12,248 nucleotides of DNA from Chlamydiota bacterium (GCA_016196885.1 JACPWU010000060.1:1-12248); one strand, 5' to 3'. Counted from the stretch's first letter, positions 279 through 12,096 are shown. Numbers and translations are program-made. The notes: generated by a model not told the origin, from the sequence alone.

Positions 279-305
279 GAAAACATAATCTTTATCAATT
301 GAGTT

Positions 306-1553
306 CTAAGACTTTTCCCCAATCTCTGCACCCACACCCTTTGGTGCTTCACCACTGGCTTCTTCCTTCTCTGTAATCTTAACCGGGGCACCGTCTTTTA
401 ATTTTACAGGTGTTTCAGTGACGACAAGCTCCCCCTCTGCAATTCCGTCATCAATTTGAATCTCGTCTGTCGCGGTGTAGCCGACTTTAATCGGTCTTTG
501 ATGCGCAACATTCTTGTCATCTACGATAAAAACAAAGGCCTCTTCTCCAGAGGTTTCAACGGCTTTGATGGGAAGGGCAAAGGTGTTTTGTTTGCTGTAC
601 ACAGTGACAAATCCCCGTGTGAACATGCCTGGAACAAGAGGGGCATTTTCATCATTGGGCAATTTTGCTTTGACTGTGAGGGTTCGGCTTTTTCCCTTGA
701 TCATGGGTGTGATGCTGACGATTTCTCCGTCATAAGATTTGTTAGGATACGTATCCACAAAAAATTTGGCGGCCTGTCCTGATTGTAATTTATTGATGTC
801 TTTCTCGACAATACCGATTTTGGCATAGACTTCACTGGTGTCGATCACGCTTACAATATCGCTGTTGGAGGTAACATATTCGCCGGGTTCAGCATCCCGA
901 GCCCCCAGAACGCCATCAATGGGGCTTTTGAGATAAGTTTTACTTAATTCTTCTTTAGAAGACTCCACCTCGATTTTGGCAGCATCATATTCCCTCTGTT
1001 TATTCTCCAGGTCCAATTGAACCTCTTCTATCTTTGCTTTGATAATGGCTCCAATGTCATAAAGTTTTTGATACATTTCCTGTTTTTTCTTGGCAGAACT
1101 AACGCCCGTTTCAGCCACTTCTAACTTTGCCTTGCGGTATTTGACTTTCAAAAGGGCGTCACGATTGTCAAGTCTCGCGATCACATCTCCTTTTCGCACT
1201 CGATCGCCATCTTGAAAATTATAAAATTCAATGATCCCAGGCACTTCAAACTTCAAATCAATTTCAGAAAGGCCTTCAATGCTTCCCAAAACAGGCAAAA
1301 GGTCCTGAAAATCTGCCTTTTGCGCCTTGGTGACTTTCACATCTACAGGTTCTTGTTCCTCTTTGGGGGCTTCCTTCTGGGATTCTTCTTTTGGCTTTTC
1401 TTTTTCCCCTTCCGGTTTTACCTCCGTTGTTTTCTTTCCAAAAATTTTGTCTTTAATTTGCGTAAAAACTTTAAATTTAACCTGTGCGACAATGATGACA
1501 AGACCCAGCACGACAATCAAAATGGTTCGTGCGAGACGAGATTGTTTAGCCAT
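306..1553 (-). CDS. Efflux transporter periplasmic adaptor subunit (membrane fusion protein, HlyD/RND-MFP family)
   Basis: 415-aa ORF with the expected parts. It has an N-terminal TM anchor (LARTILIVVLGLVIIVAQV) and a K/E/P-rich linker. A lipoyl-like motif follows (GIIEFYNFQDGDRVRKGDVIARLD), then a long coiled-coil hairpin segment, a second lipoyl half (SPIDGVLG...AEPGEYV) and beta-barrel/MP-proximal segments. AAGGAG (1566..1561) lies 7 nt upstream of the ATG. Confidence 0.85.
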   Translation of the reverse strand: MAKQSRLARTILIVVLGLVIIVAQVKFKVFTQIKDKIFGKKTTEVKPEGEKEKPKEESQKEAPKEEQEPVDVKVTKAQKADFQDLLPVLGSIEGLSEIDLKFEVPGIIEFYNFQDGDRVRKGDVIARLDNRDALLKVKYRKAKLEVAETGVSSAKKKQEMYQKLYDIGAIIKAKIEEVQLDLENKQREYDAAKIEVESSKEELSKTYLKSPIDGVLGARDAEPGEYVTSNSDIVSVIDTSEVYAKIGIVEKDINKLQSGQAAKFFVDTYPNKSYDGEIVSITPMIKGKSRTLTVKAKLPNDENAPLVPGMFTRGFVTVYSKQNTFALPIKAVETSGEEAFVFIVDDKNVAHQRPIKVGYTATDEIQIDDGIAEGELVVTETPVKLKDGAPVKITEKEEASGEAPKGVGAEIGEKS

Positions 1554-1566
1554 TTGGAGACTCCTT

Positions 1567-1655
1567 TTATAAGTTTTAAGTTGTAAGTTTTAAGTTGTAA
1601 GTAAAAAAATAAACTCCTTTAAAACTTAGAACTTAAAACTTATAACTTAGAACTG
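1567..1655. repeat. Heptamer-periodic palindromic intergenic element, TAAGTTN family, copy 1 (long imperfect hairpin)
   Basis: TAAG recurs at 1570, 1577, 1584, 1591 and 1598, an exact 7-nt spacing. The complementary CTTA recurs at 1625, 1632, 1639 and 1646. The arms pair over about 26 nt with 2 mismatches. The loop contains CTCCTT, which reads AAGGAG on the transcribed minus strand. The right arm covers the last four codons and the stop codon of the TolC-like gene. Confidence 0.85.
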
Positions 1656-3808
1656 CTTTTTATTTTCTTCTTCGCTCTTTCTAAATAAATCTGTACACGA
1701 CGGTTTTGAGGATCTAATTCGAGCGCCTTGTTCCAAGCCTCGATGGCTTCTTCGTATTTTTCTTCCTGATAGAGAACCTCTCCTTTTTTGATCCATCCGT
1801 CGACATCGAGAGTCTCATTTGATTGAGATCCAGTGGATGCTTTTCCGGAAATGGTTTTAGGAGATGTCGTACTTTTAGAAGAATCCCAGAATTGCCACCA
1901 GGGTTTGTCTCCCTGTAGACGGCGAATCACGTCTTGATAGCCTGCGGTGCTGGGGAGAGAGCCGACATCTCCAGGATTGTTAATGTAGGTTCGCCAAGCA
2001 TCAACGGGGGCGACTTCCTCTTGAAGCCCTCGCTTTAAGTCAAAATAATCTGTTAGACCCACGGTCTTATTCAAGTTGGCCACCGCCGTGTAATAACCTG
2101 TGAGAGATTGCCCGTAATCCGATTGGGCCCTTGAATATTTGTCTCGGGAATCCAAAAGTTCTGAATCGAGAACTTCATTCAGCTCAAATCTTGCTTCGGA
2201 CACCCGCATCTCTTTTTGAGCCACTTTTAATTTATCAGAATTGTTCTCGAGTTGTTGAGCGGCCTTGATGTATTCGTAATAATTTTTCTTCACTTCAAAA
2301 ATAATAGAATTACGTTTTTTAACGTATTCATCAATGGCTTTTAAATATTTAATATCGGCCTCTTTGATATCAATCTTGGCCGTGTTGTTCCAAAAATACC
2401 ATTTGAGGGTATTGCTCTGAAATTCCGTAGCCGTGGTTTGTCCCACGCTAGGGACTTTGTCTTGGGCAATGAAATTGTCTTCTAAGGTACTTGAACCAAA
2501 GGCCTTGTTGACTTTAACGCCTACAAACCATTCTTTTTCCAACTCTATATCTTCCGTAATGAAGGCCTCATCATTTAATCCTGCACTGCCTTCCAAACTC
2601 ACATTCCATTTGTATTCGCTCCTCGCAATTTTCTGACCCGCTTGATTGTATTCAATGAGAAGTTCATCCACGATGAGGTCGGATCTATTTTTGAAAGCCA
2701 GTTCAGTACATTGTTCTAAAGTTGTTTCCAGGCGATAGGGGCCCAGCACAGACCGGATGGTGAAGGGGGCTTCTTGATGGGTATCGAGGATTTGAGTCAT
2801 GGTGAGCTGGGCCAAAATCAAATCCTTTTCGGCAGCCTCTTTGCGGTAACGGATTTCACCCACCTTGGTTTTGGACTTCAACCATTCTAGTTCTGTGGCC
2901 AATTCCATTTTGTATTTTTGCTCTGTGATGTGAAGGTCTTTTTGAGCTTTTTCATGAAGTGCGTGCAAATCTTGAACGTCTTTGAGTGCATTGGTTAAAA
3001 TAAAATAAGCTTGCTCCACTTTGAAATCGAGTTCAGACACCTCTTTTTGAAGATTGCGCTTGGCAATTTCCCAATTGGTCTTGGCTTGAAGGTAGAGGGC
3101 CTTGTTTTTGCCCCAGGTGAGGAGAGGCTTTTGAACTTCCAAAGTGATTTCTCGTCCCGTAAAATCTTGACCCGTGGTCGTTCCGCGTGTTTCCTTCCAG
3201 AAGGCATCTACGGAGGGCCACAGGGCCCGCCTGGCAGGGGTTATTTTGGCTTGAGCGAGGGTTGCCTCCTCCCGTGCGATTTTGACAGAGAGGCTGTTGG
3301 CTCGGGCGATCATAATGCATTGCTCTAAAGTGAGAGGGGTGCCTGAACCTGGCAGTGGCTCATTTTCAGCACTTGGATAGTCGAACATCTTTTCTATGTT
3401 TCCAGGGTTAGAGGATACGGGTGATGGGGGGGGGGTTTGTGGGGCGGCTTTTGCTTTTTCTTCTTGGATAAGCATTTCTTCCATGTTCGGAACTCTTTGA
3501 AGAATAGAATCCAGAAGCCTTAAAATCTCTTTATTTTTTGGATCGACGAGAAGGGCTTTTTTGAGTTCTATATAAGCTGTTTTATAATCTCCTTTTCGGG
3601 CAGCCATCTTTCCCACGCGGAGCTGATTTTTTACGTAGGTTTTTTGTTCAGGTGTAAGAGGGGAGGACGAGGAAGCGTCTGAAGCGGGAGAAAGACTTTC
3701 ATTTGAGGAGGCCCCTAATAAATTTTCAGAAGGAAAAAAAGTCAAAGTGAAAGAGGAAAGGGTCAGGAAAAGAATCAAGACCCGTCCGAAGGTTAGAAAA
3801 TATTTCAA
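1640..3808 (-). CDS. TolC-family outer membrane efflux protein with TPR motifs at both termini
   Basis: The central region of about 430 aa has the duplicated outer-membrane-efflux-protein architecture (LTLEQCIMIARANSLSVKIAREE...; second half TLEQCTELAFKNRSDLIVDE...). The N-terminal segment KGDYKTAYIELKKALLVDPKN and the C-terminal segment EEKYEEAIEAWNKALELDPQN are TPR-like. The track ORF starts at a GTG at 3823. I prefer the TTG at 3808, which sits 7 nt after GGAGGA and gives a canonical signal peptide, MKYFLTFGRVLILFLTLSSFTLTFF. Confidence 0.8.
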   Translation of the reverse strand: MKYFLTFGRVLILFLTLSSFTLTFFPSENLLGASSNESLSPASDASSSSPLTPEQKTYVKNQLRVGKMAARKGDYKTAYIELKKALLVDPKNKEILRLLDSILQRVPNMEEMLIQEEKAKAAPQTPPPSPVSSNPGNIEKMFDYPSAENEPLPGSGTPLTLEQCIMIARANSLSVKIAREEATLAQAKITPARRALWPSVDAFWKETRGTTTGQDFTGREITLEVQKPLLTWGKNKALYLQAKTNWEIAKRNLQKEVSELDFKVEQAYFILTNALKDVQDLHALHEKAQKDLHITEQKYKMELATELEWLKSKTKVGEIRYRKEAAEKDLILAQLTMTQILDTHQEAPFTIRSVLGPYRLETTLEQCTELAFKNRSDLIVDELLIEYNQAGQKIARSEYKWNVSLEGSAGLNDEAFITEDIELEKEWFVGVKVNKAFGSSTLEDNFIAQDKVPSVGQTTATEFQSNTLKWYFWNNTAKIDIKEADIKYLKAIDEYVKKRNSIIFEVKKNYYEYIKAAQQLENNSDKLKVAQKEMRVSEARFELNEVLDSELLDSRDKYSRAQSDYGQSLTGYYTAVANLNKTVGLTDYFDLKRGLQEEVAPVDAWRTYINNPGDVGSLPSTAGYQDVIRRLQGDKPWWQFWDSSKSTTSPKTISGKASTGSQSNETLDVDGWIKKGEVLYQEEKYEEAIEAWNKALELDPQNRRVQIYLERAKKKIKSSSKL

Positions 3809-3844
3809 GTGCTGCTCCTCCACCCGGCGGCTTTATGTACATGA

Positions 3845-3967
3845 GACCTCTGAAAAAGGCCCATCTGACAACGCTTCCTGCTTCGCTCAGTCGTGCGGCG
3901 TACTGGAGAACGTACGCCTCCTCCCTCGCTCGCAGGCGCCTCGCATCTGGGACCTTTTTGAGAGGTC
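3845..3967. repeat. Structured dispersed repeat, copy A (123 bp; 18-19-nt terminal inverted arms plus a conserved apical hairpin)
   Basis: Collinear with 10804-10924, with most positions identical by eye. The outer arms are GACCTCTGAAAAAGGCCC and GGGACCTTTTTGAGAGGTC. The apical hairpin is GGCGTAC-tggagaac-GTACGCC (3897-3918). CATCTG is directly repeated just inside both arms. The element lies between the divergent TolC-like and hypothetical genes. Confidence 0.8.
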
Positions 3968-4028
3968 TCTAGAAGTAGGGGTTTTTCAGAGGCTTCGTAC
4001 ATATATGTATGCAAAAAATAATGCGCCC

Positions 4029-4057
4029 ATGCTAGTACATAAATCCTTCTGTGTCAA
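4029..4057 (-). promoter_or_regulatory. Candidate sigma70-type promoter for the TolC-like/adaptor operon
   Basis: The minus strand reads TTGACA (4057..4052), a 17-nt spacer, then TAGCAT (4034..4029). This implies a leader of about 200 nt containing repeat copy A. Motif match only. Confidence 0.4.
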
Positions 4058-4078
4058 CGGTATTTTTGGGTTTTTCAC

Positions 4079-4107
4079 TTGACACTCTTCCATCCCCATG
4101 TTATGTT
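4079..4107 (+). promoter_or_regulatory. Candidate sigma70-type promoter (extended -10) for the 4141-4614 gene and possibly the HU/IHF gene
   Basis: TTGACA (4079-4084), a 17-nt spacer, then TATGTT (4102-4107), with TG at 4099-4100 in the extended -10 position. It sits back-to-back with the minus-strand promoter, with 21 bp between the two -35 boxes. Confidence 0.45.
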
Positions 4108-4140
4108 CAAAACAAAGAGTTTTATTGTGAGGGGATCATC

Positions 4141-4614
4141 TTGGGCCAAAGGAACTTAGAGCTAAAAATTGAAATGCTCGAAAGTTTCATGAATTTATGG
4201 AAAAAGCTTCATGACATCTTAGATTCTCTTTTGAAAGATCATCAAGCGACAGAAGAGATGGAGCGGAATTTCCTGAGTGTCAAGGCTGAGATTGCCCGTC
4301 AGCATGCCAGACTCAGTGAAGATCTCGGGCTGGACGCTCATTTTGCAGATGAGGTGATGGGGATGCTGAGCCAGATGATTTCTCTCAAAGATTATCTTAC
4401 CCTTTCTGCCACGCAGACGCGAAGAATCGAGTCCCAATGGCATCATCTCTTCATTCTCATGCATGGTCAATTAGGAAAATATCAAGCCCATCAAGAAAAG
4501 AAGAGTTCTGGAAAGTGGCTCTTGCGAATTTTAAAAAATCCATGGGTGGTTTTGACGTTGGGGGTACTTGTCTTGGTGGGAATTTATTTTGTGGGACAGA
4601 GGATATTGCATTAA
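4141..4614 (+). CDS. Hypothetical alpha-helical protein with a C-terminal transmembrane anchor
   Basis: The track ORF begins at a GTG at 4051, which would place the predicted promoter inside the CDS. An in-frame TTG at 4141 follows GAGGGG (4129-4134) by 6 nt. An in-frame ATG at 4174 is the alternative start. The C-terminus WVVLTLGVLVLVGIYFVG is a single TM segment. I recognise no family. Confidence 0.55.
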   Translation: MGQRNLELKIEMLESFMNLWKKLHDILDSLLKDHQATEEMERNFLSVKAEIARQHARLSEDLGLDAHFADEVMGMLSQMISLKDYLTLSATQTRRIESQWHHLFILMHGQLGKYQAHQEKKSSGKWLLRILKNPWVVLTLGVLVLVGIYFVGQRILH

Positions 4615-4617
4615 AAA

Positions 4618-4707
4618 CAGTTATAAGTTGTAAGTTTTAAGTTCTAAGTTTTTAAAGGAGTTTATTCTTTTGTTTACTTATAACTTGCGACTTAAAACTT
4701 ACAACTG
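4618..4707. repeat. Heptamer-periodic palindromic intergenic element, TAAGTTN family, copy 2
   Basis: TAAG recurs at 4624, 4631, 4638 and 4645. CTTA/CTTG recurs at 4677, 4684, 4691 and 4698. At least 17 contiguous bp can pair in one register and 26/32 in another. The core TAAGTTTTAAGTTCTAAGTTTT(T)AAAGGAGTTTATT matches the reverse complement of copy 1, apart from one extra T in a T run. Confidence 0.85.
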
Positions 4708-4727
4708 TGTTTAAAAGGAGGCTTGAA

Positions 4728-5051
4728 ATGACAAAGCGAGATTTGGCCATTCGCATTGCCAATGAGACAGGGGTTCCCCAAATTGCCGTCAAGGAGGTGA
4801 TTCAAAAAACACTGGACTATATCATTGAGAGTTTGGGTAAGAACGATAAGATTGAGCTGAGAAATTTTGGTGTCTTCATGGTGAAGCATCGAGATGCCCG
4901 AGTGGGAAGAAATCCCAACAAGCCCGAGCAAGAAGTTCAGATTCCCGCGAAGAATGTACCTTATTTTAAGCCTGGAAAAGAAATGAAGAAAATTGTTGAG
5001 ACGTTTCTGAATCAGCACCTGAATGCGCCAACGCCTCCGGCAGCTGCGTAA
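4728..5051 (+). CDS. HU/IHF-family nucleoid-associated DNA-binding protein
   Basis: MTKRDLAIRIANETG...IELRNFGVFMVKHRDARVGRNPNKPEQEVQIPAKNVPYFKPGKEMKK matches the bacterial histone-like fold and the arm signature GRNP-x-IPA-x-FKPGK. AAGGAG (4715-4720) lies 7 nt before the ATG at 4728, so the track's GTG at 4707 is rejected as the start. I cannot tell from sequence alone whether this is an IHF subunit or HU. Confidence 0.9.
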   Translation: MTKRDLAIRIANETGVPQIAVKEVIQKTLDYIIESLGKNDKIELRNFGVFMVKHRDARVGRNPNKPEQEVQIPAKNVPYFKPGKEMKKIVETFLNQHLNAPTPPAAA

Positions 5052-5055
5052 AGAT

Positions 5056-5147
5056 TGGTGAGTGGTTATTGGTGAGTGGTAAGTAGAGAGCAAAAGCCTT
5101 AAAAATATATTTCTCACCACTCACCACTCACCAATAACCTCTCACTT
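5056..5147. repeat. Heptamer-periodic palindromic element, TGGTGAG family, between convergent genes (possible bidirectional 3' hairpin)
   Basis: The left arm is five heptamers: TGGTGAG TGGTTAT TGGTGAG TGGTAAG TAGAGAG (5056-5090). A 22-nt A/T-rich loop follows. The right arm is CTCACCA x3 then ATAACCT CTCACTT (5113-5147). Arms 5058-5090 and 5113-5145 pair at 29 of 33 positions. No U tract follows on either strand. Confidence 0.8.
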
Positions 5148-5151
5148 ATCC

Positions 5152-6234
5152 TCACCCGCATTGCGCTCTCTGTAGCAAATAATGATCCACCAAAACAAGT
5201 GCCATCATCGCTTCTACCATCGGAACGGCTCTGGGGAGCACACAAGGGTCATGTCGTCCTGGAGCTGAGAGAAGTGTTTGATCACCTTCCGATGTGACTG
5301 TTTCCTGGATTTGACGAATGGTGGCCGTGGGTTTAAAGGCCACTCGAATCACAATATCCTCGCCATTTGAAATGCCGCCTTGCACGCCTCCTGATCGATT
5401 GGTTTTAGTTCGAACCTTGCCTTCTTCCATATAGAAGGCGTCATTGTGCTGGGATCCTGTCATCAAAGTTCCTTCAAAGCCTGAGCCAATCTCATAGCCC
5501 TTGGTCGCAGGTAAGCTCATCACGGCCTTGGCCAATTCTGCTTCCAGTTTGTCAAAGACTGGATTTCCGAGCCCCACAGGAACTCCTTGGGCGATGGCCT
5601 CAATGATTCCTCCCAAGGAATCACCTTTCTTGCGAGTGTCTTCAATCAGCTGAATCATTTTTTCGGCCGTGGCAGGATCGGGACATCGGACGATGTTAGA
5701 CTCGATTTTTTCATGGGTGAGAAAGGTGGTATCCATCGAACAAGCAATGGAGTGAATTTGTTTTACATAAGCAAGAATTTTCACACCGCACTTTTCTTTT
5801 AAAATTTTTTTTGCTAGAGCCCCTGCGGCCACACGGCCCACGGTTTCTCGAGCGCTAGACCGGCCGCCCCCTTGCCAATTTCGAATCCCATACTTTTGTT
5901 GATAGGTGTAGTCCGCATGGCTGGGGCGAAATGTTTCTTTAAAGGGTGCGTAGTCTTCTGCTTTTGTATCTTTGTTAAGGACCATCATGGAAATAGGCGT
6001 GCCTAATGTCATTCCCTCAAAAACACCCGATAAAATTTGAACGCGGTCTTCCTCCTGACGAGGCGTCGTAATACGGCTTTGACCGGGCCGGCGACGGTCC
6101 AACTCATATTGAATTTCATCCGCTGAAATGGGAATGCGCGGCGGGCAGCCGTCAATGACCACACCGACTCCGCCTCCATGGGATTCACCCCAGGTCGTAA
6201 TTCTAAAAAGATGTCCGAAAGAATTTCCGCTCAT
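5152..6234 (-). CDS. aroC: Chorismate synthase
   Basis: 360 aa. The N-terminus [30 protein letters not shown] and the motifs [17 protein letters not shown] and RPSHADYTY...[10 protein letters not shown] are hallmark chorismate synthase signatures. The length is typical of the family. Confidence 0.95.
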
Positions 6235-6246
6235 TTAGATACCGTT

Positions 6247-6320
6247 CTGCGTACATCGTACATCGTGCATCGTTCTACGTACGCAGTACGATGCACGATG
6301 CACGATGCACGATGCACTGC
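6247..6320. repeat. Heptamer-periodic palindromic element, GCACGAT/ACGATGC family, in the aroC / ATP-grasp divergent spacer
   Basis: Ten in-phase heptamers run from 6251 to 6320: GTACATC GTACATC GTGCATC GTTCTAC GTACGCA GTACGAT GCACGAT GCACGAT GCACGAT GCACTGC. ACGATGC is a perfect tandem x4 at 6288-6315. The left arm pairs with the right arm at about 19 of 21 positions. A nested alternative stem pairs CTGCGTAC (6247-6254) with GTACGCAG (6279-6286). Confidence 0.85.
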
Positions 6321-6339
6321 CTTATTCTATCACTTCATT

Positions 6340-6368
6340 TTGAAATCTTGTAGATTTAATGTTACAAT
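6340..6368 (+). promoter_or_regulatory. Candidate sigma70-type promoter for the ATP-grasp gene
   Basis: TTGAAA (6340-6345), a 17-nt spacer, then TACAAT (6363-6368). It lies about 80 nt upstream of the ATG at 6448. Motif match only. Confidence 0.45.
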
Positions 6369-6447
6369 AAAGCCAGAGTATGGAGCTTATCATAAACGTA
6401 ATAAAATCTTTTTTGAATTCTCTCCTGTGTTTTCTCTGGATTTTGAC

Positions 6448-7503
6448 ATGATGAAAAAACTAAATGTTACGGTCTTAACCAATGCAACTCGAGAGATGGC
6501 TCCTGATGATCCGAAATCAATTGAAATCATCAAGGCCTCTGAAGAGGTGGAGCATGATATTACAAAAACATTGGAGAAATGCGGGCATCATGTGCGCGTG
6601 CTCGGGATTAAAGAAGATGTAAAAAATTTTTTCAACGGACTTCTAGATTGCAAAGATGACATTATTTTCAATGTCTGCGAATCTTTTCGCAATGACTCCA
6701 TGCTCGAAATGCATGTGGCTGCTGTCCTTGAGCTGGTTGGATTAAAATACACAGGTTGTGGTCCTACCGGCCTTTTGTTTGCTCAGGATAAAGGGATTAC
6801 GAAAAAAATTTTAGCCTATCATGGAATTAAATTCCCGGCTTTTGCGATTTATCCTAAAGGGAAGCCCGTGGAAGTTCGTCCTTCGGATTTGAGATTTCCT
6901 TTGATTGTGAAACCTTTGCATGAAGATTCTTCTATTGGGATCAGTGGAAATTCCCTTGTTAAGAACGATGAGACCTTGAAAGAACGTGTCGAATTTGTTC
7001 ACGAAAAATTGAGTCAGGATGCCTTGGTGGAGGAATATATTGAAGGCAGAGAGTTTTACGTGGGTGTTCTGGGATTTGAAGACGCACAAGTTCTTCCGAT
7101 TATTGAAATGGATTTTTCAAATTTTCCGAAAGACAGACCCAAAATTGCGAGCTTTAAAGCCAAGTGGGATCCAAAATATCGGGAGGAAAAGGGGATCAAA
7201 AGTTTCTTTCCAAAGGATTTGCCAGGAGACTTGATTTCGAAAATTTCGGAAGTTGCTCTGACTTCTTTTAAGGCCCTTCAATTGAGAGACTATGCCAGGC
7301 TAGATTTGCGCGTGACGCCGGACCATGAGGTGTATGTCCTGGAGGCCAATCCCAATCCCTATATTGCCGAGGGGGAGGATTTGCCTGAGGCGGCTGCCAA
7401 GGCAGGGATTTCTTATTCAGATTTCCTAGAGCTGATTCTCGACAGCGCCTTAAAACGACACCGAAAAAATATTCCCCCTCCCAAGAATGGCAGTGGGGTC
7501 TAG
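6448..7503 (+). CDS. ATP-grasp enzyme, D-alanine--D-alanine ligase-like family (substrate unknown)
   Basis: The region after MMKKLNVTVL has the Ddl-like layout. This comprises a pre-ATP-grasp domain (ESFRNDSMLEMHVAAVLELVGLKYTGCGPTGLLFAQDKGITKKIL), an ATP-grasp core (FPLIVKPLHEDSSIGIS...VEEYIEGREFYVGVLG) and a C-terminal Mg/ATP motif (ARLDLRV...VYVLEANPNP). It lacks the canonical cell-wall Ddl N-terminal GG-S-E-VS motif. The track's upstream extension (6178-6447) overlaps aroC and the heptamer hairpin, so I reject it. Confidence 0.8.
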   Translation: MMKKLNVTVLTNATREMAPDDPKSIEIIKASEEVEHDITKTLEKCGHHVRVLGIKEDVKNFFNGLLDCKDDIIFNVCESFRNDSMLEMHVAAVLELVGLKYTGCGPTGLLFAQDKGITKKILAYHGIKFPAFAIYPKGKPVEVRPSDLRFPLIVKPLHEDSSIGISGNSLVKNDETLKERVEFVHEKLSQDALVEEYIEGREFYVGVLGFEDAQVLPIIEMDFSNFPKDRPKIASFKAKWDPKYREEKGIKSFFPKDLPGDLISKISEVALTSFKALQLRDYARLDLRVTPDHEVYVLEANPNPYIAEGEDLPEAAAKAGISYSDFLELILDSALKRHRKNIPPPKNGSGV

Positions 7504-9174
7504 CGCACGTTTGAGATTTGCCATCGCTGTGAGTGTTTCCCTCGGATAAAGAATTTCCAAAGAGCTATGTTTAAGTTTTCCAATCCCATGTTCAGCAGAA
7601 ACAGTTCCATGCATCGAGACGGCTTGCTTGCATAATTCCAAATAAATTTTTTTTGATTCTCTTAATTCGGTTTCATTTTTAGGTAGCAGATTGGCGTGCA
7701 GGTGATTATTACCCATGTGCCCAAAAATGACATATTGAATCTCACTTTTTTGAAGGGTCTCGCGGAAAAAATTCATCATGGGAATAAAAAATTCATCGGG
7801 GACGGCTGTGTCTGTGCCTACTTTGTGAAGAGACGAAAGTCCACTTTCCCTTTTGTGAAGGCCAATGATTTCATTGACACGTTTTGGAATTTCATGTCGG
7901 AATTCTCTTAAATTTTGCTGATGTTTTTCTTCGCCGGGGAAAGCCAACTCTAAATCGTTCAGGACATTTTGCCCTTTTAATAAAAGGAAGAGTTTTCCAA
8001 AGGGATGGTCTTGCAGGCTTTTCTCTTCTTGGGGTTTTAAAGCTCTTTCTTCAAAGAGAGGACTCATTAGATTTTCAAGAGATTCACGAGAGATAGGGAT
8101 AGAACTCTCTTGTTCTAAAAAGAGAGCACACTCGGCTTTTTCGGGGACGCGAGTGCCAAGGGGATTTTTTCTCAAGAGATTCAGTGACTCGCCATCAAAA
8201 TATTCAATGGCTCGAATGTCCATTCCATTTAAATGATGAGTGCGCCAGGTGCGGTAGGCTTCTTCTCTCAGTGTTTGAACAAAATGAAGCGCTGTATTCT
8301 CTTTTTGAAAAAAGGCAATGGCGCTTAAGACTGTACTGGGTTTTTTTTGAAGAACGAGTTCGATTTGAGTAACCACGCCCAAAGTCCCTTCAGATCCGAT
8401 CCACAAATCAATCAAATCCATTTCCGGTTTACAAAAATATCCAGCCGCATGTTTAATAGAGGGCATGGAAATATGTGGAATAGCAATGAGCACTTTCTTT
8501 TTTTCTGAGATGAGTTCAAAAGTACCTTCTTTGGAGGAAAAATTTTTTCCTCTCTCAAGATTGAGAATCCCTCCTTGACTCAAAGCAATTCTGAGTGCAT
8601 GAACGTGCGCCCGCGTCGCCCCATATTTAAAGGTTCGGGCCCCGGAGGCATTGGTTGCGATCGTGCCACCCAGGAAGGCAGTGGTTTCTGTGGGGTCTGG
8701 GGGATAAAAAAGTCGAAGGGCCTCCATTCTTTTCTGAAATTCTCCCAATCGGAGTCCTGGAGGGACTACGGCGATGATTTTATCTTCTTCGCGTTTTAAA
8801 TAAAATTGATAAGGAATATTTGTGAGTTCATCGTGGCCTTCTAAAATTTCAAAAACATCTTCGCCGGGTTGAGGATAAGTTTTTGAGAAAAGAAGGGTTG
8901 CGATCACTTCTCCACCCAGAGGAATAGCACCACCCACCAGCCCCGTGTGATTACCCGCGATGGTGACAGGGGTATTTTTTTGAGATGCGTTTTTTAGGTA
9001 TTGGGAAATCTGCTCTTCTGTCTGAGGAAAAATAACAGCTAATGCATTGCCCCCAACCATTCTCGATGCATCTTGAAGATATTCTTGAAATTCTGCAGGG
9101 TCTGTTTTACGAAGGAGAGAAGATGTTGTGTCGAGGGGGCTTTGTTTTGCGGAAGTACAATAAAGGGTGGTCAT
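7450..9174 (-). CDS. FAD-binding oxidoreductase, FAD-linked oxidase (GlcD / D-lactate dehydrogenase-like) family
   Basis: 574 aa. It has an FAD_binding_4-like N-terminal half (VIFPQTEEQISQYLKNASQKNTPVTIAGNHTGLVGGAIP; GGTIATNASG; GSEGTLGVVTQIEL). The C-terminal half is FAD-oxidase_C-like (HMGNNHLHANL...SAEHGIGKLK...LDPTAILGRGNIF). Its 3' end overlaps the ATP-grasp CDS by 54 nt. Confidence 0.85.
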   Translation of the reverse strand: MTTLYCTSAKQSPLDTTSSLLRKTDPAEFQEYLQDASRMVGGNALAVIFPQTEEQISQYLKNASQKNTPVTIAGNHTGLVGGAIPLGGEVIATLLFSKTYPQPGEDVFEILEGHDELTNIPYQFYLKREEDKIIAVVPPGLRLGEFQKRMEALRLFYPPDPTETTAFLGGTIATNASGARTFKYGATRAHVHALRIALSQGGILNLERGKNFSSKEGTFELISEKKKVLIAIPHISMPSIKHAAGYFCKPEMDLIDLWIGSEGTLGVVTQIELVLQKKPSTVLSAIAFFQKENTALHFVQTLREEAYRTWRTHHLNGMDIRAIEYFDGESLNLLRKNPLGTRVPEKAECALFLEQESSIPISRESLENLMSPLFEERALKPQEEKSLQDHPFGKLFLLLKGQNVLNDLELAFPGEEKHQQNLREFRHEIPKRVNEIIGLHKRESGLSSLHKVGTDTAVPDEFFIPMMNFFRETLQKSEIQYVIFGHMGNNHLHANLLPKNETELRESKKIYLELCKQAVSMHGTVSAEHGIGKLKHSSLEILYPRETLTAMANLKRALDPTAILGRGNIFSVSF

Positions 9175-9188
9175 GTTTTTTCTTTTTA

Positions 9189-9207
9189 CTCACCACTCAC
9201 CACTCAC
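9189..9207. repeat. Solo arm of the TGGTGAG heptamer family (CTCACCA x2.7)
   Basis: CTCACCACTCACCACTCAC is identical to 5113-5131, the right arm of the 5056-5147 hairpin. I see no complementary partner within about 60 nt. It spans the stop codon (9204-9206) of the VOC gene and the 29-nt spacer before the oxidase start. Confidence 0.6.
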
Positions 9208-9812
9208 GACTGTCTTTTCGTCGACTGCATCAAACTGTTGGCTTGAGGAGGCTGAAATCCGGCATAGCCCTGATGGCGCTCTGCCAGTTCAAGGACAGAA
9301 AAAGATTCATTTTTGCGCTTTTCAGGTTCTGTAAAGATTTGACGAAGGACAGAGCCCGGTTTGCCGACAATTTTTCCAGAGAATCGAATGCCGTGGGATT
9401 TCATGGCCCGAACCGCTTTTTCAATGTCACCGACTTGAATCGCGACATGATGGAGGGTTTTGTCGCCAAATTTCTTGACCCATCCGGGAATAATGCTGGT
9501 TTTACCCGCGGGACCCTTTTTACCTTGGTCAATGAAGATGGCCGGATGCCCGGGTTTTCGAAGGACAATGGCAAACCAGTCGTCGTATTCCAAAATGCCC
9601 TTGGGACCAACCGTTTTATCCTGCTTGAACCCCAACTTCAAAAATTCTTGAGCTCTTTTATAAACGTCCGTCGTTCGCACAGTCATATGATCTGCAACGG
9701 GTCGAAAACCAATACCTATTTTTTCCAAGACTCGAGCAATGATATGAGCGGATTTATTTTTGCGAAGGTAATCTTGAATGTAGGCCTGAATGACTTTTTC
9801 AGCAGCATCCAT
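9204..9812 (-). CDS. VOC (glyoxalase/bleomycin-resistance/dioxygenase) superfamily protein, resembling the C-terminal module of 4-hydroxyphenylpyruvate dioxygenase
   Basis: 202 aa. HHVAIQVGDIEKAVRAMKSHGIRF, then LRQIFTEPEKR...FSVLELAERHQGYAGF...ANSLMQS, parallels the HPPD C-terminal pattern (HH-A; LLQIFT; FFEIIQR-GFG-GNF-LF). It is probably co-transcribed with the oxidase, with a 29-nt gap on the same strand. Confidence 0.6.
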   Translation of the reverse strand: MDAAEKVIQAYIQDYLRKNKSAHIIARVLEKIGIGFRPVADHMTVRTTDVYKRAQEFLKLGFKQDKTVGPKGILEYDDWFAIVLRKPGHPAIFIDQGKKGPAGKTSIIPGWVKKFGDKTLHHVAIQVGDIEKAVRAMKSHGIRFSGKIVGKPGSVLRQIFTEPEKRKNESFSVLELAERHQGYAGFQPPQANSLMQSTKRQS

Positions 9813-9846
9813 GATTAAAGTTTATCACATTTTAAAATCTCAATAG

Positions 9847-9875
9847 TGGAAAAAGAACTTCCTTTATTATAGAAT
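9847..9875 (+). promoter_or_regulatory. Weak candidate promoter for cysM (would give a near-leaderless mRNA). It overlaps a perfect minus-strand TATAAT (9871..9866) that could serve the VOC gene
   Basis: TGGAAA (9847-9852), a 17-nt spacer, then TAGAAT (9870-9875), with the ATG at 9885 and no SD. The reverse complement of 9866-9871 is TATAAT, but I find no good -35 for it. Motif level only. Confidence 0.25.
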
Positions 9876-9884
9876 CCACGAGCT

Positions 9885-10796
9885 ATGAATTTTCTAAAAT
9901 CGTCTAAAACTGTATTAGATTTGGTGGGAAATACCCCTCTTTTGCGTCTTCAAAGGTTGGGGAAGGAATTTTCTCCTGTTCAATTTTATGTCAAAGCCGA
10001 ATGGTTTAATCCGGGAGGCTCTGTCAAAGATAGGCCTGCTTTGAGAATGATTTTGGAGGGGGAACGCTCTGGAAAATTGACACAGGATTTAGTGATTTTA
10101 GATTCTTCATCAGGGAATACCGCCATTGCCTATGCGATGATTGCCGCCTTTCGCAAATACAAGGTGGAGCTTGTCATGCCTGAAAATGTAAGCGATGAGC
10201 GCAAGAAAATTCTCAATGCGTATGGTGCCAAGGTTATTTATACAGATCCCTTAGAGGGTTCAGATGGAGCGATTCGGGAGGCGCATCGGCGCCTTAAAGA
10301 AAATCCTCAAAAATATTTTATGCCGGATCAGTACAACAATCCTTTTAATCCAAAGGCGCATGAAGAGGGTACGGCCCAAGAAATATGGGCTCAGACAGAA
10401 GGAAAGGTAACGCATCTTCTGGCCGGGATTGGGACGGGTGGGACCGTCACAGGAACAGGAAGAGGACTTAAGAAGCACAATCCAAAGATTCAGGTGATTG
10501 CGGTTGAGCCAGCGGGCGCTCTTCATGGTTTGGAAGGGATGAAGCACATGGCTTCTTCGATTGTGCCCGGGATTTATGATGAGAAATCCTTGGAGGGAAA
10601 AGTTTCTGTGGAGACAGAAGATGCCTATGAGATGACCCGAGCTTTATCTCATGAAGAAGGCATTTTGGTGGGGCAATCCTCAGGCGCTGTTTTATGGGGA
10701 ATGTTTCAGGTGGCCAAGAAATTGAAGGAAGGATTGATTGTGGGGGTTTTCCCGGATGGCGGAGATAAGTATTTGACGACACGAGTGTGGGAGTAG
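9885..10796 (+). CDS. cysM: Cysteine synthase, CysM-type PLP-dependent beta-replacement enzyme
   Basis: 303 aa. It has GNTPLLRL, the PLP-lysine motif NPGGSVKDRPA, the Asn-loop SSSGNTAIA, the glycine loop GIGTGGTVTG and the C-terminal QSSGAVL...DGGDKYL. The length and the region VEPAGALHGLEGMKHMASSIVPGIYD resemble the CysM class (E. coli and M. tuberculosis) rather than CysK. Adjacency to a JAMM protease supports this. Confidence 0.85.
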   Translation: MNFLKSSKTVLDLVGNTPLLRLQRLGKEFSPVQFYVKAEWFNPGGSVKDRPALRMILEGERSGKLTQDLVILDSSSGNTAIAYAMIAAFRKYKVELVMPENVSDERKKILNAYGAKVIYTDPLEGSDGAIREAHRRLKENPQKYFMPDQYNNPFNPKAHEEGTAQEIWAQTEGKVTHLLAGIGTGGTVTGTGRGLKKHNPKIQVIAVEPAGALHGLEGMKHMASSIVPGIYDEKSLEGKVSVETEDAYEMTRALSHEEGILVGQSSGAVLWGMFQVAKKLKEGLIVGVFPDGGDKYLTTRVWE

Positions 10797-10803
10797 GGGG
10801 CGC

Positions 10804-10924
10804 GCCCTTTGAAAAAGGCCCATCTGCTGCGTTGCCTGCTTCGCTTAGTCGTGAGGCGTACACGAAAATGTACGCCTCCTCCTTCGCTCTCAGGCGCCTT
10901 GCATCTGGACCTTTTTGAAAGGGC
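10804..10924. repeat. Structured dispersed repeat, copy B (121 bp), filling the cysM-JAMM intergenic spacer
   Basis: Same architecture and orientation as 3845-3967. The outer arms are GCCCTTTGAAAAAGGCCC and GGACCTTTTTGAAAGGGC. The apical hairpin is GGCGTACA-cgaaaa-TGTACGCC (10855-10876), and CATCTG is repeated inside both arms. Confidence 0.8.
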
Positions 10925-10939
10925 TTAAGATTCTAATTT

Positions 10940-11359
10940 ATGCTAAAAATAAAAAAAAGTACATACGATCAAATTGTAAGTTATGTGAAAGCGTCTTATC
11001 CTCATGAATGTTGTGGGGTTTTGGTGGGGAAAATGGAGGGGGATGTGAAGGTGGCCAGCGAGGCACACCCGATTCGCAATCTAAATGAAGAGCGAGCGCG
11101 TGATCGCTATAACATGGACCCCGTTGGTTTTATGCGGGTGGAGAAGGATATTGCAAGGAGGGGCCTGGAAATGGTGGGGATTTACCATTCTCATCCGGAT
11201 CATCCGGCCCGTCCTTCTCAAACAGATTTTAACCATGCCTGGCCTATTTTTTCTTACATCATTTACGCGATTGCCAAAGGGACTGATATTGAGGCCAAGA
11301 ATTGGTGCTTGAATGAGGATGCGAGTGAGTTTGTGGAAGAGGCTTATGAAATCAGTTAA
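10940..11359 (+). CDS. JAMM/MPN+ (Mov34/PAD-1) zinc metalloprotease, Mec+-like
   Basis: 139 aa. It carries the complete JAMM motif: the conserved Glu in YPHECCGVLVG, and HSHPDHPARPSQTD (H-x-H-x7-S-x2-D). The size and the position next to cysM match the stand-alone bacterial Mec+/QbsD class. Confidence 0.85.
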   Translation: MLKIKKSTYDQIVSYVKASYPHECCGVLVGKMEGDVKVASEAHPIRNLNEERARDRYNMDPVGFMRVEKDIARRGLEMVGIYHSHPDHPARPSQTDFNHAWPIFSYIIYAIAKGTDIEAKNWCLNEDASEFVEEAYEIS

Positions 11360-11364
11360 TTTTT

Positions 11365-11399
11365 ACGAACGATCAACGATGAACGATTCACGAGGAACG
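11365..11399. repeat. Solo array of five degenerate heptamers (ANN[A/C]ACG), related to the GCACGAT family
   Basis: ACGAACG ATCAACG ATGAACG ATTCACG AGGAACG are in exact 7-nt register in the JAMM / HEAT-protein spacer. Read in another phase, the units (AACGAT) differ by one base from CACGAT in 6286-6313. There is no inverted partner nearby. Confidence 0.55.
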
Positions 11400-11407
11400 G
11401 TAGTTCG

Positions 11408-12061
11408 ATGAGACGCATCATTGATTTTTTTATTATTCCTTTAGTGATTATTTTGTTTCTCATTGGAGGAGTCATTTGGGTTCAGCATTCTTCTTTTGTT
11501 CATAAGACGGTGGAAGATTATGTCCGGGATTTAAAATCTTCCAAAGTAGAAAAAAGGTGGTTTGCGGCCTATCGTTTGGGTGAATTAAAGGATGCGAAGG
11601 CAGTAGGTCCGCTTTTGTCAGCTCTTCAGGATTCTTCACGAGAAGTCAGGTGGAATGCGGCGCTTGCCTTGGGGAGTTTGAAAGACAAGCGAGCAATATC
11701 ACATTTGATTCGGGCTTTAAAAGACGAAAATGATGGCGTGAAAGTTTGTGCAGCTAGGTCTCTTGGATTTTTAGAAGATGAAGCTGCCGTTGATGCCCTT
11801 TTAGAAATTCTAAAGAGTCCAAATGAGTCGGTAGAGCTGACCGCAATTTGGGCACTCGGAAATATTGGAAGCAAAAAAGCCACTTCTTTTTTAGAACCCT
11901 TCCTTGAAAATCCATCCCAGGAAATTTCATTTCAAACCGCTTGTGCCTTGGCCCGTTTGGGCAATGCAAGAGGCAAATCTCTCCTGGAAACCATGCAAGA
12001 CTCTCCTCAGCCAGAGGCCAGAGACGCTGCGAAAGAGGCGTTAAGGTTGTTGGGGGTTTAG
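11408..12061 (+). CDS. HEAT-repeat (PBS-lyase HEAT-like) protein with an N-terminal transmembrane anchor
   Basis: 217 aa. The N-terminus IIDFFIIPLVIILFLIGGVIWV is a TM helix. About five repeats of roughly 31 aa follow, with the HEAT_2/PBS-lyase pattern: VRWNAALALGSLKDKRAISHLIRALKDEN, VKVCAARSLGFLEDEAAVDALLEILKSPN and so on. Confidence 0.8.
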   Translation: MRRIIDFFIIPLVIILFLIGGVIWVQHSSFVHKTVEDYVRDLKSSKVEKRWFAAYRLGELKDAKAVGPLLSALQDSSREVRWNAALALGSLKDKRAISHLIRALKDENDGVKVCAARSLGFLEDEAAVDALLEILKSPNESVELTAIWALGNIGSKKATSFLEPFLENPSQEISFQTACALARLGNARGKSLLETMQDSPQPEARDAAKEALRLLGV

Positions 12062-12096
12062 CACGATATTTTTATACATTTTGAAGTTATGACAGT

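Follow-up and report, generated by a model that had tools for sequence, protein, structure and literature searches.

The window analysed here, the entire 12.2 kb of a MAG contig labelled Chlamydiota by NCBI, offers a dense example, rich in hairpins, of a known, poorly understood repeat class, and not a new kind of system. Six of its 11 intergenic spacers, about one array-bearing spacer per 2 kb, carry tandem arrays of 7-nt units, the flanking genes being Pfam-supported with NCBI gene calls in agreement (Table 1). We consider it moderately probable that these are intergenic heptanucleotide SSRs (LSSR/STRR) grown by slippage, near-neutral by-products of mutational bias with side effects on mRNA rather than a dedicated regulatory system.

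Table 1 Heptamer arrays and hairpins in the window (TRF, Tandem Repeats Finder; IR, inverted-repeat match; + and -, strands).
Feature	Position	Strand	Units, arms and loop	Spacer	Arm complementarity	RNA fold (kcal/mol)	Methods
Hairpin A1	1566..1655	-	TAAGTTN arm 1566-1604, inverted NAACTTA arm 1618-1655; loop 13 nt	86 nt, TolC-like gene/RND adaptor (HlyD-type) gene, both minus strand	96% over 27 nt	-34.5 on +, -26.7 on -	TRF, lag scan, IR, RNA and ssDNA folding
Hairpin A2	4616..4706	+	arms 4616-4654 and 4676-4706	113 nt, hypothetical gene/HU gene	88%	-32.1 on +	TRF, IR, RNA folding, A1/A2 alignment
Hairpin B	5054..5147	none assigned	left arm 5054-5090, (ATTGGTGAGTGGTT)x2 plus partial copy; right arm 5111-5147, CTCACCA x3 plus degenerate units; loop ~20-30 nt	between convergent HU and chorismate synthase genes	91%	-47.2 on + (z -8.8), -59.4 on - (z -11.2)	TRF, IR, RNA folding
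Hairpin C	6243..6321	none assigned	GTACATC/GTGCATC units 6243-6280, ACGATGC x4.3 6283-6321; loop almost nil	divergent, chorismate synthase (start codon 6234, minus)/ATP-grasp gene (start codon 6448)	87%	-50.8 on -, -38.8 on +	TRF, IR, RNA folding
Solo array D	9187..9211	-	ACTCACC x3.4	29 nt, filled by the array; VOC/glyoxalase-family gene to FAD-oxidase start codon (9174)			TRF, lag scan, folding
Solo array E	11365..11401	+	degenerate, ~five CGATNAA units; 14-nt super-period	48 nt, JAB gene/HEAT-repeat gene; array ends 7 nt before start codon			TRF (period 14, 84% matches), lag scan, folding
Period-7/14 arrays	1570-1602, 1619-1654, 4619-4652, 5053-5080, 5113-5145						TRF
Period-7/14 arrays	6250-6273, 6288-6317, 9188-9211, 11367-11399						TRF

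The original prediction of exact 7-nt arrays at six places was borne out by Tandem Repeats Finder (each of the six loci having 2.9-5.1 copies of period 7) and by a lag scan of 21-nt windows with a self-match of at least 80% at lag p (p=3 to 21), and all of the arrays are intergenic. Other Tandem Repeats Finder output in the window amounted to one 2-copy heptamer within a gene and one 13-mer. The lag scan returned seven segments at p=7 and six at p=14, all remaining periods in the 3-21 range being empty, while 200 dinucleotide shuffles gave 0.00 segments at p=7 and p=14 and at most 0.01 at any period; within the window, 7 (and 14) are exclusive. The left arms of A1 and B contain exact super-repeats of 14 nt; the heptamer array claimed for hairpin B is present, its left arm having a 14-nt period. 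The array at 11365-11399 (CGATNAA), assigned to the GCACGAT family by the original prediction, is only loosely related to that unit. As in the LSSR/STRR class, the arrays have at least three head-to-tail 7-nt copies, exceed what composition would give and are mainly non-coding. Their unit sequences exclude them from the named families (STRR1-3, TAACTGA, GGGAATC, GGGGAYT, ATCTTTC), and the window lacks even a two-copy tandem of any of TAACTGA, CCCCAGT, TTGGTCA, CAACAGT, GGGAATC, GGGGATT, ATCTTTC and TTTTGAA.

Inverted arms forming hairpins of about 20-30 bp had been predicted at four loci, and folding as RNA (z-scores from 200 shuffles) and as ssDNA agrees with this. RNA folding energies of the four pairs range from -26.7 to -59.4 kcal/mol (z -4.4 to -11.2, matched by 0 of 200 shuffles), and ssDNA folding gives z-scores of -3.3 to -7.5, the stems measuring 25-31 bp and the arm complementarity spanning 23-31 nt. 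Arm alignment shows the arms to be colinear with point differences only, and no 7-nt indels separate the arms of any one hairpin; recent slippage is not directly visible in them, which we counted against a slippage origin. Pairings shifted by 7 or 14 nt would retain much of the folding energy (-48.0 against -50.8 kcal/mol for C on the minus strand), making the suggested slipping between registers physically plausible. Neither solo array folds as RNA, and D has no inverted partner. Rfam gave no match at gathering score; below it came only plant or animal microRNA precursor models (36 bits against 68), hits that we ascribe to the generic shape of a long hairpin.

Most arrays are probably transcribed, because most lie inside operons or adjoin start or stop codons. 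The TolC stop codon (TAA, 1640-1642) falls within the right arm of A1 and the VOC/glyoxalase-family stop (TGA, 9204-9206) inside array D, while hairpin C ends ~10 nt upstream of the aroC start codon and would be placed in the aroC 5' UTR by predicted promoter-like sites. Once transcribed, the pairs would form RNA stems of 25-31 bp lacking a U-tract, in UTRs and intercistronic regions, that may serve as RNase III substrates and as barriers to 3' exonucleases, and might let adjacent cistrons differ in stability or translation. In the predicted folds, duplex length and stability are adequate for an RNase III substrate of the hmw1A type.

The syntenic relatives that could be compared are the nearest other genomes, with proteins 55-66% identical. 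The same spacers hold heptamer arrays of other sequence, or are short and array-free, and the arrays are therefore lineage-specific additions. In the relative L124, CTCACCA/CTCACGA units take the place of TAAGTTN in the TolC-adaptor spacer, while hairpins with arms of GCTCGAG (-60.7 kcal/mol) and AAAATCN occupy the adaptor-AcrB and the divergent spacer, respectively; all ten of its arrays are intergenic, and about ten further unit sequences are found there. L125 and L126 have only 18-19 nt in the spacer equivalent to that of A2, and L124 has 62 nt. No arrays occur in L130, L131 or L133 and one in L132, the spacers of these four having shrunk to 14-60 nt. The relatives' 63 kb yielded 10 arrays of period 7 and 0-1 for each other base period. 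The suggested comparison of orthologous spacers revealed different heptamer sequences or no arrays, in genomes too distant for steps in copy number to be followed. Since relatives equally distant from the window are without arrays, or with a single one, the coordinated function implied by a window-wide 'system' is not supported, and this dispensability underlies our near-neutral reading.

That the arrays are an assembly or chimera artefact limited to this contig, a possibility the original prediction had raised against itself, is vanishingly improbable. The contig is a short one from a MAG, repeats are difficult for short-read assemblers and the Logan assemblies break inside A1, but across the arrays the window matches the NCBI contig JACOUD010000067.1 at 100% identity, as it does Logan contigs from three runs (SRR12113387, SRR12113416 and SRR12113417), with A2, B, C and D reproduced base for base in one 6.7 kb contig from the independent Logan assembler. 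Array D was found again in two more sequencing runs, the same proteins occur in two NCBI MAG records, and arrays of the same kind are present both in the syntenic relatives and in isolate genomes of other phyla. Among the NCBI contig and the Logan contigs of the three runs, which are consensus sequences and probably from one population, no variation in array copy number was seen. This we also counted against slippage, with consensus sequence only having been compared.

A1 and A2 are 86% identical over ~110 nt, including the loop TTTAAAGGAGTTTATT, and because the identity extends through the loop the alignment indicates that they are copies of one element. The original prediction had suggested a common mechanism for the arrays instead of descent from one sequence; a sequence-independent generating process fits, but descent evidently contributes in this pair. 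Both have a G+C content of 20-24%. In A2 the TAAGTT core is kept while the seventh base is free, leaving 6-bp helices split by single mismatches.

Growth by slippage would account for the variety of units as follows. Arrays would originate and lengthen at their present sites through strand slippage, by one or two heptamers at a time, with 7-nt loops that would be too large for mismatch repair, and mutated units would be re-amplified to give new 'families'. An arm could then be copied inverted beside itself by intramolecular template switching, yielding mirror-image arms, and a whole arm-loop-arm unit would occasionally be duplicated elsewhere, as with A1 and A2. Evolution in place is suggested by the stepwise drift of one L124 array (19146-19217), which changes unit by unit from AGCTTCT through AGCTTTC and AGCTTTG to AACTTTA, and by the 14-nt super-repeats of the A1 and B left arms; the colinear arms with their point differences fit the mirror-copying step.

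It is unlikely that the hairpins are instead non-autonomous mobile elements (MITE-, REP- or REPIN-like) with heptamer-built arms, moved by a transposase elsewhere in the genome. Such movement would explain the two copies of a ~100-nt arm-loop-arm unit in A1 and A2, which share their orientation relative to the downstream gene, and the 21-nt identity CACCACTCACCACTCACGACT common to D and an L124 array at a non-orthologous spacer despite ~62% protein identity; both observations are easier to understand as mobility or copying, and were counted against slippage. A second dispersed palindromic repeat of ~125 nt, apart from the heptamer arrays, is present in the genome, and the Logan break inside A1 is what a multi-copy sequence would cause. 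However, neither target-site duplications nor conserved termini were found around A1 (flanks AAAAGCAG/TATAAAAGG) or A2 (AAAAACAG/TGTGTTTAAAAGG), a search of JGI metagenomes turned up no related copy of the A-element loop motif, and no transposase is encoded among the 11 genes of the contig. B, C and E are single-copy within the 12 kb, B and C being unrelated in sequence, and families differ at the same spacer between relatives. Transposition leaves the gradual drift within one L124 array unexplained and would need a further cause for a 7-nt period common to unrelated sequences.

Selection for RNA elements, be they tail-less terminators, RNase III sites or 3'-end stabilisers for which heptamers are the easiest route to a longer stem, is similarly doubtful. 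Very stable stems lie exactly at cistron boundaries, L124 has an independent hairpin at the TolC-adaptor junction (-26.1 kcal/mol), relatives have an ordinary hairpin in the convergent spacer where the window has B (in L124, tgcccgatgaatcgggcg), a heptamer hairpin in hmw1A is functional and cut by RNase III (PMC12721329), and in other phyla 21 solo TAAGTTN arrays lie in convergent spacers but only 3 in divergent ones. Against this, the same junctions are free of hairpins in L125, L126, L130, L131, L132 and L133, two of the six arrays are unable to fold, the bias towards convergent over divergent spacers is weak over all families (29% against 16% of spacers) and hairpin pairs track the abundance of spacer types. 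None of the 13 terminator-like sites in the window coincides with an array, stems of 25-31 bp with no T-run after them lack the features of intrinsic terminators, and B in particular has a U-tract on neither strand. Moreover, the stronger-folding strand differs between A1 and A2, and this inconsistent G-U asymmetry gives no sign of selection on the RNA fold. Less probable again is a role as sequence-specific binding arrays for a single-strand RNA- or DNA-binding protein of the CSP, S1 or CsrA type acting on translation, as proposed for cyanobacteria and for the Beggiatoaceae TAACTGA repeats (PMC4679880; bioRxiv 10.1101/2022.06.06.494920). While the distance from array end to the downstream start codon is 7-22 nt for five of the six arrays, as read from the sequence, such proximity is unavoidable in spacers of 29-113 nt. 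The conserved TAAGTT core with its variable seventh base and mismatch-split helices would suit a binding site, but the hairpins would bury the putative sites in duplex, one protein cannot read at least three unrelated unit sequences in 12 kb and some ten more in L124, and the orientation of solo TAAGTTN arrays relative to transcription is only weakly biased in other phyla (29 against 16).

Arrays of this kind extend well beyond the lineage. Among 120 loci from many phyla (861 kb), 245 arrays were found at p=7 against 2-24 at other periods; with the ascertained family removed, period 7 still outnumbers every other, with 66 arrays compared with 24 for p=8, 10 for p=9 and 9 for p=6. Inverted same-family pairs are common in these loci, neighbouring arrays forming 25 such pairs against 9 same-family direct ones. 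In viral contigs, TAAGTTN arrays numbered 38; of the same-composition controls, TTTAAGN, in partial overlap with the target family, gave 60 and TATAGTN at least 120; control heptamers are thus as common as TAAGTTN or commoner, and there is no sequence requirement.

Inverted arms and palindromes give the window hairpins a partial likeness to REP/BIME/REPIN and Drosophila foldback (FB) elements. In enterobacteria and Pseudomonas, REP elements are palindromes of transcribed extragenic spacers, where they lend stability to upstream mRNA and form inverted doublets; they have a single conserved sequence in each genome, lack internal tandem periodicity and depend on a RAYT transposase. FB elements have inverted arms of short tandem repeats and are eukaryotic, kilobase-sized and mobilised by transposase. 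We know of no 7-nt rule in either. The original prediction knew of no described class pairing heptamer arrays into hairpins, which proved incorrect: heptanucleotide LSSRs have been published (PMC4679880, PMC4692102), as have inverted pairs in Xanthomonas (PMC4692102) and the hmw1A hairpin (PMC12721329). As cited in these papers, Mrazek 2007 reported heptanucleotide repeats to be over-represented in bacterial intergenic DNA (PMC4679880, PMC4692102) and heptamers to be the most abundant class of long SSR, proposing an origin by slippage (via PMC4679880) and a match between 7 nt and the polymerase contact length. For the preference of 7 over 5, 6 or 8 the mechanism is a proposed one, a point we also counted against slippage. 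So far as these citing papers describe them, the LSSRs of Mrazek, Guo and Shah (2007; via PMC4679880, PMC4692102) resemble the window in their tandem 7-nt units, lengths far beyond chance, intergenic location, scattered phylogenetic distribution and many unrelated unit sequences; the window differs in a density far above that of LSSR genomes (a few hundred arrays per several Mb), in short arrays (3-6 units) mostly in inverted arm pairs, and in a host lineage previously unreported.

The cyanobacterial STRRs, named as closest precedent, were the right neighbourhood. Like the window arrays, STRR/TAACTGA repeats of Beggiatoaceae, Cyanobacteria and Bacteroidetes lie a few nt before start or after stop codons, are mixed with other heptamers per spacer and are missing from shorter spacers in close relatives (PMC4679880). 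Their strains show indels in 7-nt steps, and the BOGUAY draft genome has 169 direct TAACTGA sets beside one inverted set (PMC4679880), whereas four of the six window loci are inverted pairs and the STRR/TAACTGA units are absent in tandem. The Xanthomonas GGGAATC repeats (PMC4692102) are likewise intergenic heptamers, some in inverted pairs (stem-loop or cruciform), varying in length and sequence at the same spacers across related species; they are one G-rich family with G-quadruplex potential, unlike the several families of the window, none of them G4-prone, in which inverted pairing is the rule. By analogy, the closest experimentally tested parallel is the H. influenzae hmw1A (ATCTTTC)n tract, a heptamer array forming one arm of a long RNase III-cut hairpin in the 5' UTR just upstream of the gene (PMC12721329), with a duplex of RNase III size such as is predicted for the window. 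There the repeat (at least 11 copies) pairs with a G-rich non-repeat arm, in a pathogen adhesin gene where it is both hypervariable and phase-variable. In the window both arms are repeats of 4-5 units, without any change of length among the sequences compared, and the neighbours are housekeeping genes. What the window adds to these known systems is its array density, its mixture of families and the dominance of hairpin pairing.

Tandem Repeats Finder lists repeats of period 7 or 14 at every place where the original prediction had put heptamer arrays, and almost nothing besides. The 7-nt period is equally clear from a lag scan, which compared 21-nt windows with the sequence p bases off (p = 3–21, identity of at least 80%) and found seven segments at p = 7 and six at p = 14, with no segment for the remaining values of p; 200 dinucleotide shuffles of the window contained no p = 7 or p = 14 segment. 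Placed on the eleven-gene map assembled from Pfam and public gene calls, every array falls in a spacer, as had been proposed, with 6 of the 11 spacers occupied, and the upstream gene's stop codon lies within the array at A1 (TAA, 1640–1642) and D (TGA, 9204–9206). The window has a G+C content of 44%. For chorismate synthase, the start in the public gene call gives a shorter protein. No spacer separates ATP-grasp from FAD-oxidase, two convergent genes whose 3′ ends share 54 nt (7450–7503); their counterparts on L124, a syntenic contig of a relative, lie 36 nt apart.

Genes, heptamer arrays and dispersed repeat copies in the window
Feature	Position	Strand	Basis
Partial ORF leaving contig end	1–268	minus	Read from sequence
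RND adaptor (HlyD-type)	306–1553	minus	Pfam/public calls
A1, TAAGTTN hairpin (TolC-adaptor spacer)	1566–1655		
TolC-like gene with TPR	1640–3808/3823	minus	Pfam/public calls
Second dispersed repeat, copy 1	3838–3972		
Hypothetical gene	4141–4614	plus	Pfam/public calls
A2, TAAGTTN hairpin (hypothetical/HU spacer)	4616–4706		
HU	4728–5051	plus	Pfam/public calls
B, hairpin (HU/AroC spacer)	5054–5147		
Chorismate synthase (AroC)	5152–6234	minus	Pfam/public calls
C, hairpin (AroC/ATP-grasp spacer)	6243–6321		
ATP-grasp (Ddl-like)	6448–7503	plus	Pfam/public calls
FAD-linked oxidase	7450–9174	minus	Pfam/public calls
D, solo array (ACTCACC)	9187–9211		
VOC/glyoxalase family	9204–9812	minus	Pfam/public calls
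Cysteine synthase	9885–10796	plus	Pfam/public calls
Second dispersed repeat, copy 2	10797–10925		
JAB/MPN	10940–11359	plus	Pfam/public calls
E, solo degenerate array (CGATNAA)	11365–11401		
HEAT-repeat protein	11408–12061	plus	Pfam/public calls

An assembly or chimera artefact is ruled out by Logan contigs, assembled by a separate pipeline from runs SRR12113387, SRR12113416 and SRR12113417, which reproduce the window base for base (4155–10839, 8149–10839, 8709–10839, 10816–12137 and 263–1599). The window spans the whole of contig JACOUD010000067.1 (GCA_016178005.1, whose proteins NCBI labels 'Chlamydiae/Chlamydiota bacterium'), and the locus fetched via the adaptor protein matches it at 100% identity across 11,553 nt. 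Logan contigs end within A1 and, elsewhere, within copy 2 of a second dispersed repeat unrelated to the arrays, fitting the expectation for multi-copy sequence. Among the Logan contigs of these three runs, which give consensus only and probably represent one population, we found no copy-number differences of the arrays. A run of ten G at 3426–3435 lies within the TolC-like gene (C10 on the coding strand, a proline stretch); homopolymers this long are classic sites of slippage or phase variation, or else of assembly error.

The second dispersed repeat is palindromic, its two copies (∼125–135 nt, same orientation) being 87% identical and each forming one long hairpin that folds better on the minus strand (−72.4 and −68.4 kcal/mol) than on the plus (−56.1 and −58.6 kcal/mol). 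Between copies the outer stem carries compensating two-sided changes (ACCTCT/AGAGGT vs CCCTTT/AAAGGG). It has no match in Rfam; candidate identities are a MITE- or REP-like element and a structured RNA. Past the last gene, at 12114–12160, there is a direct repeat, TGTCCAAATTGTAGTCGTAAGAA and TGACCGAATTGGTATCGTAAGAA (24-nt spacing, 78% identical), with a third partial ATCGTAA downstream at about 12190–12200; this non-heptameric sequence may represent an operator or another kind of repeat.

Inverted-arm hairpins are indeed present at the four loci predicted to have them, A1, A2, B and C, with arm complementarity over 23–31 nt of 96%, 88%, 91% and 87%, respectively. They fold as RNA at −26.7 to −59.4 kcal/mol (z −4.4 to −11.2) and also as ssDNA (z −3.3 to −7.5); no folding was seen for the solo arrays D and E. 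The suggestion that such hairpins slip between registers is physically reasonable, since pairings moved over by 1–2 units retain much of the folding energy (e.g. −48.0 vs −50.8 kcal/mol on the minus strand of hairpin C). At A2, the variable seventh base leaves 6-bp helices with single mismatches between them. The two arms of each hairpin mirror one another colinearly, with point changes between them but no 7-nt indels; separate 7-nt and 14-nt duplications in the arms of B were considered and dropped, as a gap-free arm alignment needs point changes only. For both A1 and B, Tandem Repeats Finder detected exact 14-nt super-repeats in the left arm. Rfam (E ≤ 1) returned only spurious sub-threshold microRNA-precursor matches to the long hairpins, and a terminator scan called none of the arrays, none of which resembles an intrinsic terminator.

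Read in the direction of the flanking genes, A1 and A2 are 86% identical over an alignment that starts at AAAA(G/A)CAGTT, takes in the two arms together with the loop TTTAAAGGAGTTTATT and reaches as far as the downstream gene's ribosome-binding site. Their likeness, judged from the alignment, is due to descent, and the proposal of a common mechanism rather than descent fails for this pair, the interpretation being otherwise partly right. A leader peptide at the Shine-Dalgarno-like loop (AAAGGAG) was rejected: A2 has a TTG-started 14-codon frame, while A1 lacks a start codon.

Comparison with syntenic contigs of relatives, namely L124 (GCA_016178055.1, labelled Chlamydiae), L125 (GCA_041906865.1) and the metagenome contigs L126, L130, L131, L132 and L133, highlights how patchy the arrays are. 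All are roughly equidistant from the window and from one another: chorismate synthase homologues are 77–82% identical, and less conserved proteins are 55–66% identical to those of the window and mostly 55–66% among the relatives, two pairs reaching 73–74%. L124 contains ten period-7 arrays in 21 kb, all ten intergenic, with units unlike those of the window (AATCCGA, CATTTTG/AAAATCN, GACAACA, GCCTCGA, GCTCGAG, CACCACT/CACGACT, CTTCTAG and ACTTTAA), and heptamer-armed hairpins at three loci (−60.7, −39.0 and −26.1 kcal/mol). Shared spacers do not share units: between TolC and the adaptor, the window has TAAGTTN and L124 has CTCACCA/CTCACGA. A few short arrays of TGCGTNN or CACGANN units occur in L125 and L126, L132 has a single array, and none was found in L130, L131 or L133. 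The hypothetical-gene/HU spacer is 113 nt long in the window and 18–19 nt where arrays are missing, and the HU/AroC spacer is 100 nt in the window vs 14 nt in L130, so the arrays have been added to minimal spacers and the flanking genes do not need them. That equally distant relatives do without them argues the arrays are dispensable. At the site of A1, L125 contains AAGTTTTTAAGTTTAAG (5234–5288), two imperfect TAAGTTN-like units that could be the seed or the remnant of an array. L124 also encodes V-type ATPase subunits A, B and D upstream of the syntenic block (103–3871), which is compatible with the Chlamydiota label without proving it.

Hairpin-paired heptamer arrays prove more widespread than the original prediction supposed. 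A scan of one genome per species with three and a half TAAGTTN units matched at least 120 stretches, those listed being mostly from Bacteroidota, with Poribacteria, Patescibacteria, Omnitrophota, Planctomycetota, Acidobacteriota, Gammaproteobacteria, Cyanobacteria and others, and isolates such as Pinibacter soli, Flavobacterium ponti and Shewanella benthica, also among them. The 861 kb around the 120 listed loci hold 245 arrays of period 7 vs 2–24 for each other period from 4 to 12; with TAAGTTN-like arrays removed, 66 of period 7 remain, vs 24 of period 8, 10 of period 9, 9 of period 6 and 2 of period 5. Pairs of arrays at most 100 nt apart at these loci comprise 25 inverted and 9 direct pairs of the same family and 21 of different families, and sampled pairs fold at −26 to −60 kcal/mol; hairpin pairing is therefore general, and no peculiarity of this contig. 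Although at least 120 genomes from many phyla might suggest TAAGTTN is a privileged heptamer, in viral contigs it matched 38 stretches vs 60 for the same-composition control TTTAAGN, which partly overlaps the TAAGTTN family if N = T, and at least 120 for the control TATAGTN, so we rejected this idea. AT-rich heptamer arrays are common in IMG/VR contigs (L149–L312), many in giant-virus MAGs (GVMAG) and some contigs with several. Using crude ORF calls (≥120 aa) at the listed loci, solo TAAGTTN arrays show a weak bias relative to transcription direction (29 vs 16) and lie in 21 convergent vs 3 divergent spacers; across all families the contrast is mild (29% of convergent vs 16% of divergent spacers), and hairpin pairs simply track the abundance of spacer types.

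On balance we lean towards a four-step account of how these elements arise. Arrays would begin and lengthen in place by slippage in 7- or 14-nt units, a step suggested by the 14-nt super-repeats of A1 and B and by one L124 array whose successive units read AGCTTCT, AGCTGCT, AGCCTCT, AGCTTCT, AGCTTTC, AGCTTTG, AACTTTA, AACTTTA and AACTTTG. Such drift would be the expected product of repeated mutation and re-amplification in place, and illustrates how heptamer 'families' can diverge. An inverted copy of an arm would then be placed beside it, giving mirror arms, and now and then the whole unit would be duplicated elsewhere, as with A1 and A2. These three steps we infer from sequence patterns, and the fourth from position and the Haemophilus precedent: as arrays lie inside operons or against start or stop codons, the pairs are probably transcribed, yielding 25–31 bp tail-less RNA stems that would serve as RNase III substrates or exonuclease barriers. 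A purely in-place origin is counted against by CACCACTCACCACTCACGACT, which array D has in common with the array between TolC and the adaptor in L124, a spacer not orthologous to that of D.

That the hairpins, A1 and A2 among them, are mobile palindromic elements appears unlikely; no target-site duplication was found at A1 or A2, and a search of JGI metagenomes for more copies with the loop and arm edge (TAAGTTTT[N]AAAGGAGTTTATT) gave 15 matches, all unrelated (ribosome-binding-site contexts and one sample's unrelated repeat). The loop-motif scan also matched a multi-copy element starting TAAGTTTTGAAAGGAGTTTATTTACAATAAACCTAGGCTACAAGTTAAAAAGTGCAAGGCACGTGGGCTTGGCCCCTCAC, unrelated to A1/A2, in JGI/ENA metagenome contigs (L134–L138, L143, L144 and L146, several of them Ga0126337); its varied insertion sites and left flanks make this sequence look like the end of a mobile element. 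We give no more credence to hairpins kept by selection as RNA elements, as the strand with the more stable RNA fold is antisense in A1 and sense in A2, which leaves no strand-consistent G-U signature of selection on RNA structure. It is very improbable that the arrays are protein-binding sites. Beyond the four-step account, it is a long shot that some lineages, this Chlamydiota-labelled clade included, have an active, sequence-independent process building and lengthening hairpins in 7-nt steps. Candidates would be repeat expansion coupled to transcription and RNase III, as suggested for hmw1A, and template switching primed by hairpins where forks stall. Were this so, intergenic RNA stems would be a genome-wide, quickly tunable layer of operon regulation, and genomes of equal relatedness would differ in having them because a single trans-acting factor had been gained or lost.

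The window and L124 provide a compact natural test set, with many unrelated families in a few kb and array-less relatives equally distant. Both the common inverted same-family pairing at the listed loci and the stepwise unit drift along one array bear on how repeats arise. Annotators should record heptamer hairpins as repeats and not mistake them for small-RNA genes, terminators or CRISPR-like arrays; heptamer arrays also break short-read assemblies.

Heptamer repeats (STRR) have been known since 1990; to our knowledge, neither a reason for seven nor a general function has been established. The original prediction named no described class of hairpin-paired heptamer arrays; intergenic heptanucleotide simple-sequence repeats are already described (PMC4679880, PMC4692102), and the window arrays belong among them. 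Mrazek et al. 2007, as related by MacGregor (PMC4679880), report that heptanucleotides outnumber every other class of long simple repeat in the majority of prokaryotic genomes, and propose that slippage is favoured because 7 nt is the DNA stretch contacting polymerase. In Beggiatoaceae, Cyanobacteria and Bacteroidetes, TAACTGA repeats immediately precede start codons, mixed with other heptamers; spacers of relatives are shorter and without repeats, and strains differ by indels in 7-nt steps (MacGregor, PMC4679880). GGGAATC and GGGGAYT repeats include inverted pairs (Rehm et al., PMC4692102), and heptamer repeats are reported to affect recF and recO expression in Nostoc (preprint 10.1101/2022.06.06.494920). 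None of the published units occurs in tandem within the window. New here is how densely the arrays lie, with roughly one occupied spacer for every 2 kb in both the window and L124. Also new are the coexistence of several families, the prevalence of inverted pairs and a host lineage unreported before. The closest tested parallel to the window hairpins is H. influenzae hmw1A, in which (ATCTTTC)n is part of the transcribed 5′ UTR and supplies one of the two arms of a long hairpin cut by RNase III, and a change in repeat number needs transcription, the hairpin and RNase III (PMC12721329).
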